Shown here: piece after piece, positions 20,152 through 54,752 of the stretch
How positions within the stretch are numbered: position 1 is the first letter of the stretch
Layout: every line of letters begins with the position of its first letter
Assembly: GCF_024298765.1 (NCBI RefSeq)
Contig: NZ_CP101210.1
Strand: one strand, 5' to 3'
From: Escherichia coli
Lineage (GTDB): Bacteria > Pseudomonadota > Gammaproteobacteria > Enterobacterales > Enterobacteriaceae
Length of the DNA: 64,000 nt
Made by a program: the position numbers and the translations under genes
Notes under the pieces: model-generated
What the model was told of the DNA's origin: nothing
Database searches by the model: none
What the model saw: the letters and a program-made list of their open reading frames with translations, nothing else

Positions 20152-20514
20152 TTAATGACCTGCTGCGCGGAGTTTTCCGTCAGGCTCACCGGCAAGAGTC
20201 AGTAATTGTCCCTGGTCTTCCTGCAGAATAGTCAGGCGACCACCGCGATTGACATACATCGGCGTTTCGGTGGTGTCTTCTTCGGAAATTTTCCCACGGT
20301 TAGTCGGGCGAACATATGAGAGTTTGTGTTTGATTTTCACACGGTTCTCATCAAATGGTTCGATTTCCAGGTTGAGTGAGACCTTACCTTTGGTTTTCGT
20401 GTTCATCACACCGGAAGCGACTTCACTGAGAACTGCGCCGATTTTGGTTTCAAATACGCCGCCGTCCAGCTCCCCGATAAATGCCTGCACATCAGTACTG
20501 CGTTCGCTAGCCAT
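20152..20514 (-). CDS. YfdP-like prophage early protein (hypothetical)
   Basis: Likely start at MASERSTD, with GAGGAG 8 nt upstream on the coding strand; track ORF extends to 20700. Confidence 0.5.
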   Translation of the reverse strand: MASERSTDVQAFIGELDGGVFETKIGAVLSEVASGVMNTKTKGKVSLNLEIEPFDENRVKIKHKLSYVRPTNRGKISEEDTTETPMYVNRGGRLTILQEDQGQLLTLAGEPDGKLRAAGH

Positions 20515-20856
20515 TTTGCTGCTCCTCATCATATCGACCCTGCAAGGCCGATTAGTTTCTCCACAAAACAGAGAAGAACACCTGCGGTGGCAGCCGCCCG
20601 GATGGATTGGGTTATGAGCCCGTCGTCCGATGATGTTCTTCTCTGTTTTGTAAAAAGAGCGGTACCAGCCGGAAGCAAGTGTACAAACTGGTACCGCCAA
20701 AGCAGTGGCTGTTGTGGTGACCGGTGCTGATCTCCGGCTTGCGGTTATTTCAGACTCTCACGGGCGTTTAATTGCCCCGCCGAACAGCTCTTTTCCGCAA
20801 TAGCTGCAATGTCTTTCGCGCATCAGCCTGCGCATTCACCACAACTCTAAAAACAA

Positions 20857-20909
20857 ATGTAGGATATCCAACGTGTGGGTGTCAAGAGTTTATGTTGGTT
20901 ATCCTACAT
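20857..20909. promoter_or_regulatory. Left operator/promoter region (OL/PL-like): two copies of the repressor operator motif
   Basis: atgtaggatatccaac and gttggttatcctacat, the same motif found three times at OR. Confidence 0.55.
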
Positions 20910-20971
20910 AAAAAGATAGGCTCATAAAAAAACCGGGGATACCCCGGTTTTGCGATAGTGAGGAAGATGTG

Positions 20972-21625
20972 TCAAAAATCCATTATTACTTGTTTGACAA
21001 GACCAACTATTCTGCAGTTCTCACCGCATTCAATAGTTTTATAGTTAGGATTTAGTGGGACGAGATACCTGTTCGGCCAGTCCTCAACAAATTTTTTGAG
21101 TGTCGCTTCTTGCCCACCATTGATATGGGCAACAACGATTTTTCCGTTAATACACTCTGTATCAATAATATCTGGCTCTACGATAACGATAGAACCTTCT
21201 GGTATCGATGGTGAGCCGAGGGGATTGGTCATTGAATCACCACGGACCCGTAGTGCAAATGCCATTTCTGATACAAGGGCGGTAGTATAAACCCACTCTT
21301 CAGCATCTTCTTTCCTGACACCAGGCTCCGTCATTGTCCATGAACCCGCCTGAACCCACGAGATGAGGGGGACTTTTTTAACTGCGAATATTTCAGGTTT
21401 TAGATTTATCTTTGGTTCAGGCGAGCCTTTTCCGCTAACAAGCCACAGAGGATCGCATTTAAGTGCGTTGGCTAGGGCTTGAAGGTTGGCTCCATTTGGT
21501 TGGTAGTCGTCCTTTTCCCATCCAGTAACCGTGACACGGTTCACACCAGTCAAATCAGCCAGTGCTTGTTGTGTCAGGTTCAGTTCTTTTCGCCTTTGGC
21601 GAATACGATCACTCATGTTCATCAT
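20972..21625 (-). CDS. CI-like prophage repressor (N-terminal XRE HTH, C-terminal S24 LexA-like peptidase domain)
   Basis: 217-aa ORF; HTH (LTQQALADLTGVNRVTVTGWE) and S24 motifs (RVRGDSMTNP ... KKF); divergent from a cro-like gene. Confidence 0.8.
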   Translation of the reverse strand: MMNMSDRIRQRRKELNLTQQALADLTGVNRVTVTGWEKDDYQPNGANLQALANALKCDPLWLVSGKGSPEPKINLKPEIFAVKKVPLISWVQAGSWTMTEPGVRKEDAEEWVYTTALVSEMAFALRVRGDSMTNPLGSPSIPEGSIVIVEPDIIDTECINGKIVVAHINGGQEATLKKFVEDWPNRYLVPLNPNYKTIECGENCRIVGLVKQVIMDF

Positions 21626-21688
21626 GTAGGCAATCCTACCACATGCTCATGTAGGATTCTTGACATTGATATGTTGGATATCCTACAT
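21624..21688. promoter_or_regulatory. Right operator region (OR1-3-like) with divergent PRM/PR promoters
   Basis: Three operator copies (atgtaggcaatcctac, atgtaggattcttgac, gttggatatcctacat); ttgaca -35 at 21660-21665; cI ATG abuts the operator. Confidence 0.6.
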
Positions 21689-21720
21689 TTCTGCTTAACG
21701 TAATTTAACGGGAGACAGAA

Positions 21721-21918
21721 ATGCGGAAATCCGACGTGATTAATTATTTCGGCGGAGTTTGTAAAACCGCCGAAGCCCTAGGTATTAAGCATCCGTCTGT
21801 TTCAGAGTGGCCTGAGATTATTCCTGAAGGCCGAGCGTACCAGTTAGAAAAAATTACTAACGGGAAACTGAAAGTTGACGTGTCTTTATATCAAAAGACT
21901 AACAGTGCTGCGGCATAA
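21721..21918 (+). CDS. Cro-like small HTH regulator (YdaS/DicC-type)
   Basis: 65-aa ORF divergent from cI directly after OR. Confidence 0.65.
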   Translation: MRKSDVINYFGGVCKTAEALGIKHPSVSEWPEIIPEGRAYQLEKITNGKLKVDVSLYQKTNSAAA

Positions 21919-21945
21919 AAACACCACAGAAATGAGGAATTAACC

Positions 21946-22530
21946 GTGGGTAAAGAACCTGAATGGAAAGTTGATAAACAACCAGCATGGCTGGTGGCAG
22001 CAATACGAAGAACGATTGCTGATTTACCTCATGGCTATGAGGAAGCAGCAGAAATTCTTGGTTTGTATAAATCTGATGATATCACCCCAGCAAAAGATCA
22101 ATTGCATAACAGACTGCGTAGCGGTGGGGATCAAATTTTTCCACTTGAGTGGGCCATGGTTTTACAGGATGCCAGTGGTACCAGGCATGTAACAGATGCA
22201 ATAGCCCGTCGTAGTAATGGGGTGTTTGTGCCGCTGGTGGTCATTGATGACATTGACAATGGTGACATTAATCAGCGGCTGATGGAGTCAATAGAATGGA
22301 TTGGCAAGCATTCCCAGTACTTACGCAAGGCAACTGCTGATGGAGTTATTGACCAAGCTGAGCGTGAGCAAATCGAAGAGAACAGCTACCAAGTAATGGC
22401 GAAGTGGCAGGAGCATTTAACACTGTTATTTCGTGTTTTTTGTGCGCCGGAAAAGAGTAACGCCCGCGAGTGTGCAGCTCCGGGCGTCGTGGCGTCGATT
22501 GCTTCTGGTTGTGGAGAAACTAACGCATGA
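21946..22530 (+). CDS. YdaT-like (CII-position) prophage regulatory protein
   Basis: 194-aa ORF, GTG start with GAGG upstream; position after cro. Confidence 0.5.
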
Positions 22531-54237: not shown

Positions 54238-54423
54238 AAAAAGCCCGCATAAGCGGGCTTTTGTGTCACTCGAGAGCCGCGGCTCCTTTGCGTATCCTTT
54301 TTTATCTCCTCACCGTCTGGTCGGTGTCCTGCTGAGACTGCTAACTTCCTGTTTTTGTTGGTGTTGTCCTTACACCGTCCAATCATGATTGGTGGAGCTG
54401 GCGGGAGTTGAACCCGCGTCCGA
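54238..54423. repeat. Right att-associated direct repeat (ssrA 3' end plus phage-borne downstream arm with terminator)
   Basis: ~90% identical by eye to 14441-14624; hairpin plus T-run (read on the minus strand) at 54238-54262. Confidence 0.7.
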
Positions 54424-54752
54424 AATTCCTACATCCTCGGTACTACATGCTTAGTCAGTCTTTACATTCGCTTGCCAGCTGCGGACGGACACGCCACTAA
54501 CAAACTAGCCTGATTAAGTTTTAACGCTTCAACCCCAGGCAGGGCTTCCACGCGATCTCTTTTGGGTTTGACCTCTCTTGATCCCCGTCCTAAGAGCGGA
54601 GGCTAGGGAGAGAGGGCTCTAAGCAGGTTATTAAGCTGCTAAAGCGTAGTTTTCGTCGTTTGCGACTATTTTTTGCGGCTTTTTACGAGGCCAACCGCCC
54701 CTCGGCATGCACCTTGGGTTTCGCAAATCCCGTCGAATCCAGAATCAGCCCC
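54390..54752 (-). ncRNA. ssrA: tmRNA (SsrA)
   Basis: Reverse complement matches the recalled E. coli tmRNA from GGGGCTGATTCTGGATTCGACGGG... to ...GGTTCAACTCCCGCCAGCTCCACCA. Confidence 0.95.

Follow-up and report, generated by a model that had tools for sequence, protein, structure and literature searches.

The locus analysed here raises two questions, namely whether five copies of a repeated motif that flank a cI-type repressor gene are the operators of a phage immunity switch, and whether that gene, whose start codon lies against one of the copies, is translated from a leaderless mRNA. The DNA searched was a single stretch of 64,000 nucleotides from Escherichia coli (the window), and the features discussed below are collected in Table 1. 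We consider it probable (roughly 0.75) that the locus is the immunity switch of an SfV/ST64B-like lambdoid prophage, built on the plan of P22 C2 and having a distinct, uncharacterised operator specificity.

Table 1. Features of the immunity region and early-left leader, in window coordinates
Feature	Position	Strand	Details
yfdP, first early-left gene	20152-20514	-	followed by yfdQ and yfdR
Y-shaped RNA, unannotated	20559-20652	-	20-bp outer stem; inner arm ending GGG-CUCAUAA-CCC; variable third hairpin
sRNA-17 homologue	20653-20845	-	193 nt; first part of the PL transcript; ends GTTGTGGTGAATGCG...GGTACCGCTCTTTT map to 20845 and 20653
sRNA-17 intrinsic terminator	20653-20697	-	perfect 10-bp stem GCGGTACCAG/CTGGTACCGC and U-run; published 3' end in U-run
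PL promoter	20856-20885	-	TTGACA 20885-20880, 18-nt spacer, TACATT 20861-20856; 10/12 consensus; predicted start ~20848
OL1	20857-20874	.	18 bp, ATGTAGGATATCCAACGT; overlaps PL -10
OL2	20892-20909	.	18 bp, ATGTTGGTTATCCTACAT; upstream of PL -35; 17-bp gap to OL1
cI probable terminator (hairpin and U-run)	20929-20951	-	just past cI stop; perfect 10-nt inverted repeat AAAACCGGGG/CCCCGGTTTT
cI-type repressor	20972-21625	-	217 aa; HTH_3 1e-15 and Peptidase_S24 4e-25 (Pfam); same 654-bp CDS in RefSeq
OR3	21624-21641	.	ATGTAGGCAATCCTACCA; overlaps cI ATG by 2 bp; holds predicted PRM -10
Predicted PRM extended -10, TGgTAGGAT	21633-21641	-	read from sequence; ATG 7 nt on; start A21627 (P22-equivalent) or A21625
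OR2	21649-21666	.	ATGTAGGATTCTTGACAT; asymmetric: consensus half-site ATGTAGGAT plus half carrying PR -35 TTGACA
PR promoter	21660-21689	+	TTGACA 21660-21665, 18-nt spacer, TACATT 21684-21689; 10/12 consensus; predicted start ~21696-21697
OR1	21671-21688	.	ATGTTGGATATCCTACAT; best consensus match; overlaps PR -10
cro	21721-21918	+	65 aa; P22_Cro, Pfam PF14549 7.6e-22; divergent from cI
YmfL / CII(CP76)-like regulator	21946-22530	+	Pfam PF06892 1.3e-6; name from RefSeq; candidate establishment activator

The earlier note had placed five copies of a motif of about 16 bp in two clusters on either side of cI. A motif search of the 64-kb window found all five where that note had put them and confined to those clusters beyond chance expectation, but the unit was longer than described, being an 18-bp near-palindrome (ATGTAGG-ATAT-CCTACAT). 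With up to three mismatches allowed, this 18-mer matched three times in 64 kb, each time within one of the two clusters, where 0.00 matches were expected (100 shuffles); OR3 and OR2 depart from the consensus at four and five positions, respectively. The window has four copies of the exact half-site, all of them within the OL and OR clusters. A repeat search independently recovered the same family and reported the PL and PR regions as a 40-nt inverted repeat of 80%. The three right-hand sites are spaced 18-7-18-4-18. OR2 was almost invariant among 41 haplotypes, and at position 20873 of OL1 the window carries a rare variant, all 14 of the 14 comparable metagenome copies having a different base. 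A literature search with the operator string returned nothing relevant.

The coding content of the region agrees with an operator function for these sites. The N-terminal domain of the repressor (residues 4-66) matched P22 C2 structures in the PDB (1ADR, 2R1J and 3JXB, E ~5e-14; 5.7e-14 for 2R1J/3JXB), and its C-terminal domain, of the self-cleaving S24 type, matched lambda cI. Its VQAG, GDSM and LKKF segments align with the cleavage and catalytic motifs VQAG, GNSM and FKKL of lambda, so that, as judged from the translated sequence, the motifs for RecA-dependent self-cleavage (an Ala-Gly site and a Ser/Lys dyad) are present. The repressor shares about 45% identity with phage repressors whose annotation is C2 and, across the N-terminal domain, 40% with P22 C2 itself. 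Its second Met (M4) was invariant in all nine aligned repressors, and most homologue alignments started there. The hairpin past the cI stop codon is followed by T-rich minus-strand sequence, and an equivalent hairpin and T-run were found in relatives. Repressor and cro genes are divergent, and the palindromic sites lie on the divergent promoters, with PR overlapping OR1 and OR2; the second cluster lies on PL, which overlaps OL1 and is the mirror image of PR. These domains and overlaps, together with the relatives described below, support the reading of three OR and two OL operators around cI. The arrangement had also been called classic, which is apt for OR and not for OL, since lambda and P22 both have three OL sites. 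We found no third OL site: the position that mirrors OR2 holds only the -35 half, without the half-site, and the 17-bp gap between OL1 and OL2 is too short for another 18-bp operator. The switch of phage 933W likewise has three OR sites, two OL sites and no OL3 (PMC5977221), and thus has the site numbers of the window, with a different repressor family and operator sequence.

Because the placement of the five sites around the repressor gene closely resembles that in P22, the switch is in most respects an ordinary one. The window shares with P22 immC a homologous repressor N-terminal domain (~45% overall identity), a short N-terminal extension ahead of a conserved Met, 18-bp operators made of 7-bp half-sites around a 4-bp centre, a PRM -10 element (predicted in the window) within the inner OR3 half, and a PRM -35 region in the centre of OR2 (AAGAAT in the window, AGGAAT in P22). 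The two differ in OR spacing (18-7-18-5-18 in P22), in half-site sequence (TTTAAGA in P22, GTAGGAT in the window) and in the number of OL sites. In addition, PR of the window is lambda-like, with its -35 in OR2 and its -10 in OR1, whereas in P22 the promoter is displaced by about 15 bp to the left, and neither a gene 24 (N) nor a nutL counterpart lies downstream of PL in the window. The likeness to lambda includes the homologous C-terminal S24 domain and the overlap of OR3 with PRM, whereas neither the N-terminal domain nor the operators resemble those of lambda in sequence, the lambda sites being 17 bp long.

In the mechanism that we propose, dimers of the 217-aa repressor would bind the 18-bp sites, and occupancy of OR1 and OR2 would cover the -10 and -35 elements of PR and so turn cro off. 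Binding at OR3 would cover both PRM and the cI start codon, giving negative autoregulation. On the left, OL1 would cover the PL -10 element, with OL2 lying beyond the -35.

The proposal that the most upstream cI ATG (21625) abuts an OR operator was confirmed by its two-base overlap with OR3, and leaves the question of how the gene is transcribed in a lysogen. The TAGGAT hexamer occupies the same position, in the inner half of OR3, as the annotated P22 PRM -10 (TAAGAT), and TGG-TAGGAT is retained in YeP1, mEp390 and L076-L087. The consensus promoter scan did not call PRM, and it found no other promoter-like site on the minus strand between cro and cI. PRM would be an extended -10 promoter within OR3, and the transcript that it is predicted to give, starting at A21627 or A21625, has no room for a Shine-Dalgarno sequence ahead of an AUG that overlaps the operator. 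In the P22 record, OR3 abuts the c2 ATG and the PRM 5' end lies 4 nt before that ATG. The mRNA of lambda cI made from PRM is the textbook leaderless mRNA, with a 0-nt leader, a -10 element TAGATT and a weak -35, and the window resembles it in having a start codon at or near the predicted 5' end, a weak -35, and a -10 followed after 6-7 nt by the ATG. The P22 PRM annotation, the extended -10 and the fusion of the ATG to the operator in relatives together make it likely that the cI mRNA is leaderless or carries a 2-nt leader and is translated from ATG 21625. Because the -10-like hexamer and the ATG both lie inside the operator, the distance between them is fixed and counts for little as independent evidence.

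The predicted start has a consequence for autoregulation. With transcription beginning at 21625-21627, OR2 would be centred at about -31, a P22-like position about 10 bp closer to the PRM +1 than in lambda, where OR2 at -42 is at the activating position for PRM; positive autoregulation is therefore uncertain. An unlikely alternative start would place OR2 differently, with the outer half of OR3 (TACATG, 21628-21623) serving as the PRM -10 and translation beginning without a leader at codon M4, the third of the ATGs (A at 21616), so that the protein would start MSDRIR instead of MMNMSD. In the window, 6 nt separate TACATG from the A of this ATG, a spacing that would centre OR2 and OR3 at about -41 and -17, mirroring the placement of OR2 and OR1 relative to PR as well as the lambda layout, so that OR2 (at -41.5) could activate PRM; the invariance of M4, at which homologue alignments begin, fits this start also. 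However, the second Met lies at varying distances from TACATG among relatives (3 nt in YeP1 and mEp390, 9 in ST101-KPC2phi6.3 and AH07, 12 in ZF40), and, as a -10 element, TACATG is without the critical T at its end. Moreover, the upstream ATG is in frame in all relatives, and the chain of the P22 C2 protein in the PDB starts at the upstream Met.

Slightly less likely still is a conventionally leadered cI mRNA, which would start further upstream, either within OR2/OR1 or past them, or come from an establishment-type promoter inside cro or on its far side. It would be translated with the aid of an AGGA that lies 8 nt before ATG 21625 in the window phage and has the same spacing in YeP1 and mEp390. 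This AGGA means that a leadered message could be translated too, and the CII-like regulator downstream of cro leads one to expect an antisense establishment transcript by analogy with lambda and P22. Such a transcript would probably coexist with PRM rather than replace it, since a prophage needs a promoter that is active while OR1 and OR2 are occupied, and the scan described above offered no other candidate between cro and cI. In addition, those relatives whose operators are of the GGTAAC type show no Shine-Dalgarno sequence at this place. We therefore favor the leaderless or nearly leaderless transcript from PRM as the lysogenic message, with transcripts from further upstream, such as one from an establishment promoter, possibly making use of the AGGA.

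Comparison with related phages bore on both the layout and the specificity of the switch. Six relatives (44-66% identity) have three OR sites, two OL sites separated by a 17-bp gap that holds the PL -35, and an in-frame ATG fused to the end of OR3 (TACATG); YeP1, mEp390, ST101-KPC2phi6.3, AH07 and ZF40 show this two-site OL arrangement. Between one and four codons precede the invariant second Met, and in the group formed by ST101-KPC2phi6.3, AH07 and ZF40 no Shine-Dalgarno sequence precedes either ATG. The recognition helix of the repressor changed with the half-site: RVTVTGWE accompanies GTAGGAT-type sites, RVSVTKWE or RVTITKWE accompanies GGTAAC-type sites, and NVAISQWE (P22) accompanies TTAAG-type sites. 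The pairing of RVTVTGWE with GTAGGAT in the window, set against that of P22, points to an immunity specificity different from that of P22. This covariation of half-site and helix, the absence of expected chance matches, the placement of the sites exactly on both early promoters and the layout in common with P22, whose operators are annotated at equivalent positions, make it very improbable that the repeats are chance palindromes or are bound by some other protein, for instance by Cro alone, although Cro would be expected to share the sites. Of the 5,426 complete E. coli genomes, 134 have this immunity type, which is also present in several Stx2c-converting and other temperate phages. Carriers of the immunity region include ETEC H10407 and FORC_082 as well as lysogens of Lys8385Vzw or SKA5.

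The early-left side of the locus differed from its first description, in which it was suggested that about 450 bp between OL and the first early-left ORF could hold an N-like gene or a small RNA. The distance from OL1 to the yfdP ATG (20514) is in fact 342 bp. A listing of ORFs of at least 20 aa gave no support for an N-like gene, the longest minus-strand ORF in 20515-20856 being 49 aa when a TTG-initiated, in-frame upstream extension of yfdP (20152-20700) is set aside. Two basic mini-ORFs of 24 aa (GTG 20842) and 25 aa (ATG 20835) were rejected as coding on the basis of start loss or premature stops in natural variants, although these variants show little diversity. The suggestion of a small RNA was correct, and that RNA has already been published, as the leader is a homologue of sRNA-17 (PMC7719688). 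In E. coli K1 RS218, where it is encoded by an mEp460-like prophage upstream of yfdP, sRNA-17 is 193 nt long with RACE-mapped ends; its deletion raised yfdP expression about 95-fold and increased yfdR as well, and it was treated as a trans-acting, ArcA-regulated RNA (PMC7719688). We placed it on the window using these ends and the readable blocks of the paper's supplementary alignment, and mEp460, the type of prophage studied in the paper, has 98.3% identity to the window over the sRNA-17 stretch. In RS218/mEp460, about 290 nt of other sequence lie between the putative early-left promoter and the 5' end of the sRNA, whereas in the window the PL -10 lies 10 nt upstream. A hairpin and T-run of other sequence occupy the same place as the sRNA-17 terminator in ST64B, phiNP, LLS and Eeyore. 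We infer from this arrangement that the early-left operon has sRNA-17 as its terminated leader. A stable fold of its 5' 136 nt was considered and rejected, the fold z-score being only -1.1, and an overlap with 'plp', annotated in the P1-like phage RCS47, seems to reflect a spurious ORF.

In the absence of an N gene, the PL transcript would run through the sRNA-17 homologue, its intrinsic terminator and then a conserved Y-shaped RNA before reaching yfdP-yfdQ-yfdR. In this Y-shaped RNA, RNAalifold identified 34 pairs, nine of them with compensatory changes; 97% of cells were paired, compared with 37-51% in slid controls, and none of 500 shuffles reached the observed covariation. A covariance model scored 109 bits at the locus, and in a search of the whole window for a second, PR-side copy it found this one locus and its reverse strand only. 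Rfam yielded no credible match, its hits (mir-3617 and Termite-leu) being sub-threshold and implausible. A boxA-like CGCUCUUUUUACA at 20647-20659, after the terminator stem, is the terminator U-tract and is not conserved as boxA in relatives, and no PR-side counterpart was found in the 64 kb. A structured RNA in the PL leader of an N-less lambdoid phage recalls HK022 put and the N-nut system. Identity with put was rejected, as short-word blastn against the PL region of HK022 gave nothing beyond short matches at chance level; furthermore, put is present in two copies, at PL and PR, whereas the Y-shaped RNA is single-copy and is placed after a terminator rather than before one.

Diversity at the bases between the operators was about 20 times that of synonymous sites, natural spacer alleles including ATCA/GAGC, GCCA/GGGC and GTCA/TGGC. 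Tentatively, and at somewhat less than even odds, we read the inter-operator bases (the PR, PRM and PL spacers) as a hot spot whose rate of change far exceeds that of neutral sequence, the operators, cI and cro being nearly clonal, and the Y-shaped RNA as a new cis-acting element of early-left control in N-less lambdoid phages. If it is real, the hot spot would reflect either localised hypermutation beside DNA to which repressor is bound or recurrent selection by which the switch is retuned in different hosts, and such retuning would bear on promoter strength, cooperativity and the induction threshold. Spacer diversity of this kind would be unexpected to a specialist and could open a tractable question on the tuning of natural switches.

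A Y-shaped RNA that has covariation support and is widespread in SfV/ST64B-like phages is also something that a specialist would not have predicted. If sRNA-17 is read as the terminated first stretch of the PL transcript, a simple explanation in cis, loss of the terminator, suggests itself for the strong de-repression of yfdP and yfdR reported upon its deletion. With the operators, promoters and likely start codon known, homo-immunity becomes predictable, for instance with mEp390 and YeP1-like phages, and the start of the repressor can be correctly annotated and induction or reporter experiments designed.

The interval 20200-22300 is a textbook lambdoid immunity region, as seen in both the sequence reading and the ORF listing; its genes, operators (OL1 and OL2 to the left of the repressor gene cI; OR3, OR2 and OR1 to the right) and early-left (PL) and early-right (PR) promoters are listed in the table. 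This module occurred at ≥99% identity in 134 of 5,426 complete E. coli genomes and also in the phages Stx2c_EH0430, Lys8385Vzw, vB_EcoM-720R4 and SKA5. In strain FORC_082 it is part of an SfV-like prophage whose head is of the HK97 type and whose tail is contractile, and which carries a Q-type antiterminator but no N gene. The tmRNA gene ssrA (54390-54752, minus strand; tag ANDENYALAA) lies ~33 kb rightward of the switch, and because ssrA is a frequent site of prophage integration, the prophage may end there or a second element may be present.

Features of the immunity region and PL leader (window coordinates)
Feature	Coordinates	Strand	Description
Repressor gene (cI type)	20972-21625	minus	217 aa; HTH_3 (1e-15), Peptidase_S24 (4e-25)
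cro	21721-21918	plus	65 aa; P22_Cro family
YmfL/CII(CP76)-like gene	21946-22530	plus	next after cro
yfdP	20152-20514	minus	left of repressor gene
DUF2303/YfdQ gene, then yfdR			beyond yfdP, left side of region
Hairpin and U-run	20929-20951		directly past cI stop codon (repeat search)
Y-shaped RNA	20559-20652	minus	unannotated; directly past sRNA-17 terminator
OL1	20857-20874		ATGTAGGATATCCAACGT
OL2	20892-20909		ATGTTGGTTATCCTACAT
OR3	21624-21641		ATGTAGGCAATCCTACCA
OR2	21649-21666		ATGTAGGATTCTTGACAT
OR1	21671-21688		ATGTTGGATATCCTACAT
PR	21660-21665 / 21684-21689		TTGACA / TACATT; 10/12 consensus match
PL	20885-20880 / 20861-20856		TTGACA / TACATT; 10/12 consensus match

The five ~16-bp repeats that an earlier note had placed around cI were all present, its coordinates being exact, and the repeat unit is an 18-bp near-palindrome, ATGTAGG-ATAT-CCTACAT. 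Allowing up to three mismatches, this 18-mer had three matches in 64 kb (0.00 expected), all within the operator clusters, and the exact half-site ATGTAGGAT occurred four times, each inside the two clusters. A repeat search independently yielded the operator family, together with a 40-nt inverted repeat (80%) between the PL and PR regions. From the promoter positions, OR1 and OL1 each overlie a -10 element. At position 2 of OL1 (20873) the window carries a rare base (ACGTTGG, where ATGTTGG is usual; minus strand), from which 14 of 14 comparable metagenome copies differed and which may represent a mild operator variant.

By sequence, this is an uncharacterised switch of the P22 C2 type. The N-terminal domain of the repressor matched the P22 C2 DNA-binding domain (1ADR, 2R1J, 3JXB; E ~5e-14), its C-terminal domain matched lambda cI, with VQAG, GDSM and KK aligned with the lambda motifs for cleavage and catalysis, and the nearest named repressors among phage records were annotated C2 (~45% identity). 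In the P22 record and sequence, 18-bp sites are arranged OR3-7-OR2-5-OR1, OR3 abuts the c2 ATG, the annotated transcript of the maintenance promoter PRM has its 5' nucleotide 4 nt ahead of that ATG, and the PRM -10 (TAAGAT) and -35 (AGGAAT) lie in the inner half of OR3 and the centre of OR2, respectively. The window has the arrangement OR3-7-OR2-4-OR1, an ATG that overlaps OR3 by two bases, and TAGGAT and AAGAAT in the places of the P22 hexamers; if the cI transcript started at A21627, OR3 would extend from +4 to -14 and OR2 from -22 to -39, values identical to those of P22. Unlike P22, the window has a different half-site sequence, two OL sites rather than three, and a lambda-like PR whose -35 and -10 fall in OR2 and OR1, respectively, and it lacks gene 24 and nutL. 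The absence of OL3 has a known precedent in 933W (PMC5977221).

We compared the switch with six relatives, YeP1, mEp390, ST101-KPC2phi6.3, AH07, ZF40 and P22, whose repressors were 66%, 61%, 44%, 44%, 33% and 40% identical to that of the window over the N-terminal 80 residues. All six had three sites between cro and cI, and all except P22 had two sites past the cI terminator, separated by a 17-bp gap that holds a -35 resembling TTGACA; the PL -10 in these phages is TACATT. Operator half-sites covaried with the recognition helix across the window and these relatives: RVTVTGWE was accompanied by half-sites of the GTAGGAT, GTAAGAT or GTCAGAT type in the window, mEp390 and YeP1, RVSVTKWE or RVTITKWE by the GGTAAC type in ST101-KPC2phi6.3, AH07 and ZF40, and NVAISQWE by the TTAAG type in P22. 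Homology and comparative anatomy thus largely support reading the repeats as operators. The annotated cro start codon of mEp390 (locus L009, ~1129-1140) lies 1 nt past the predicted PR -10 (TACTAT-C-ATG); either the start is misannotated or this phage makes an unusual cro mRNA.

The same two lines of evidence largely support the suggestion that cI may be leaderless. TGG directly ahead of TAGGAT gives the predicted PRM an extended -10 (TGnTAGGAT), the TG of which is present because OR3 departs from the operator consensus at its far end. Translation from the first ATG (21625) of an mRNA essentially without a leader is favoured because OR3 ends in TACATG, with its ATG in the repressor frame, in all relatives but P22, because no Shine-Dalgarno sequence precedes either ATG in the GGTAAC group, and because the PDB chain of P22 C2 and the RefSeq call in the window both start at the upstream position. 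Two points temper this reading: the distance from hexamer to ATG is set by the operator itself, and an AGGA 8 nt upstream of the ATG could serve transcripts from farther upstream. In the non-P22 relatives, one to four variable codons separate TACATG from an invariant Met, the third ATG of the window gene (A at 21616, 6 nt past TACATG); a start there would place OR2 at -41.5, as in lambda. However, the spacing from TACATG to this Met varies among relatives (3, 3, 9, 9 and 12 nt) and TACATG does not end in the T expected of a -10, leaving this start a minor rival to the first ATG.

From OL1 to the yfdP ATG the PL leader measured 342 bp, rather than the ~450 bp of the earlier note. The N-like gene proposed there was rejected, as the leader has no N-sized ORF (no minus-strand ORF exceeds 49 aa, except a TTG-initiated in-frame yfdP extension, 20152..20700) and its two basic mini-ORFs were not preserved among natural variants. 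The alternative proposal of a small RNA was correct: the leader, whose RNA fold was more stable than shuffled sequence (z = -4.7), contains a homologue of the already published sRNA-17, a 193-nt RNA that an mEp460-like prophage encodes in E. coli K1; its ends were determined by 5'/3' RACE, and its deletion raised yfdP ~95-fold and also increased yfdR (PMC7719688). The sequences in the supplementary alignment of that study, from GTTGTGGTGAATGCG to GGTACCGCTCTTTT, correspond to 20845 to 20653 (minus strand), a span of exactly 193 nt. A U-run following a perfect hairpin (20659-20697) forms the 3' end, and ST64B, phiNP, LLS and Eeyore have a hairpin and T-run of other sequence in the same place. 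We infer that sRNA-17 represents the opening part of the PL transcript, released by termination, and that deleting it acts in cis through loss of a terminator.

The 5' 136 nt of sRNA-17 (20710-20845, minus strand) formed a discrete module that, in six different upstream contexts, starts where RACE placed the 5' end, and that recurred at 98.5% identity in RCS47, a P1-like phage, and in Klebsiella phage IME207 (loci L216 and L217, 1501-1636 in each), where it adjoins tRNA genes; its predicted fold, with a 10-bp closing stem, was not significantly stable (z = -1.1). In the ST64B leader (L004, 1691-1809, minus strand), the sRNA-17 position had an Rfam match to STnc100 below threshold (35 bits vs a gathering score of 47), suggesting that different sRNA modules can take the same place ahead of the Y-shaped RNA in PL leaders. 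A hairpin directly ahead of the yfdP Shine-Dalgarno sequence (20519-20556, minus strand; CGGCC-UUGCA-GGGUCG) reads GGCGG-UGGCA-GCCGCC in relatives, its sequence changing and its pairing being kept across phages, and an ORF of 10-12 codons runs from a GTG or ATG at the stem foot of the Y-shaped RNA to just ahead of this hairpin.

The Y-shaped RNA was conserved across SfV-, ST64B-, phiNP- and LLS-like phages, with at least 97 distinct versions when earlier loci were pooled with the 80 of 120 matching stretches listed from an IMG/VR scan for its core (L094-L173). From 18 diverse copies RNAalifold predicted an outer stem of 20 bp, an inner arm terminating in GGG-CUCAUAA-CCC and a third hairpin that varies, with compensatory changes in 9 of 34 pairs. 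Pairing was retained in 97% of cells (37-51% in slid controls), the covariation was reached by 0 of 500 shuffles, and the G-U pairs agreed with the PL sense strand. One reservation is that the inner arm was preset by the search pattern; its hairpin GGGCUCAUAACCC putatively matches the E. coli initiator tRNA anticodon stem-loop in full. The element had no credible Rfam match and no second copy in the 64-kb window, and a relationship to HK022 putL was rejected for want of similarity. The Y-shaped RNA is a candidate for a role in processing or stability, or in cis control of read-through into yfdPQR, and is one of two items that merit follow-up.

The other is the hypervariability of the inter-operator spacers. 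Across 60 copies that encode one and the same cI protein (the window and 59 from IMG/VR), nucleotide diversity was 0.156 over 11 OR inter-operator positions and 0.049 in the gap between the PL -35 and OL1, compared with 0.0078 and 0.0055 at four-fold degenerate sites of cI and cro and 0.0066 in the OR operators, making the inter-operator spacers ~20-fold more diverse than synonymous sites. The footprint-like pattern therefore arises because the spacers are hypervariable, not because the operators are unusually conserved. The variable positions (21668-21670, 21645-21648 and 20875-20878), several of them multi-allelic, fall in the spacers of PR, PRM and PL, and 14 copies identical over the other ~840 bp had at least nine spacer haplotypes. 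Fifteen independent metagenome contigs gave the same pattern, most differing from the window solely at spacer positions over 1,062 bp, and in a clade with an 83%-identical repressor variation was again mainly in the spacers. Such diversity could reflect either hypermutation or diversifying selection, and it makes the spacers of this switch the second item worth pursuing.
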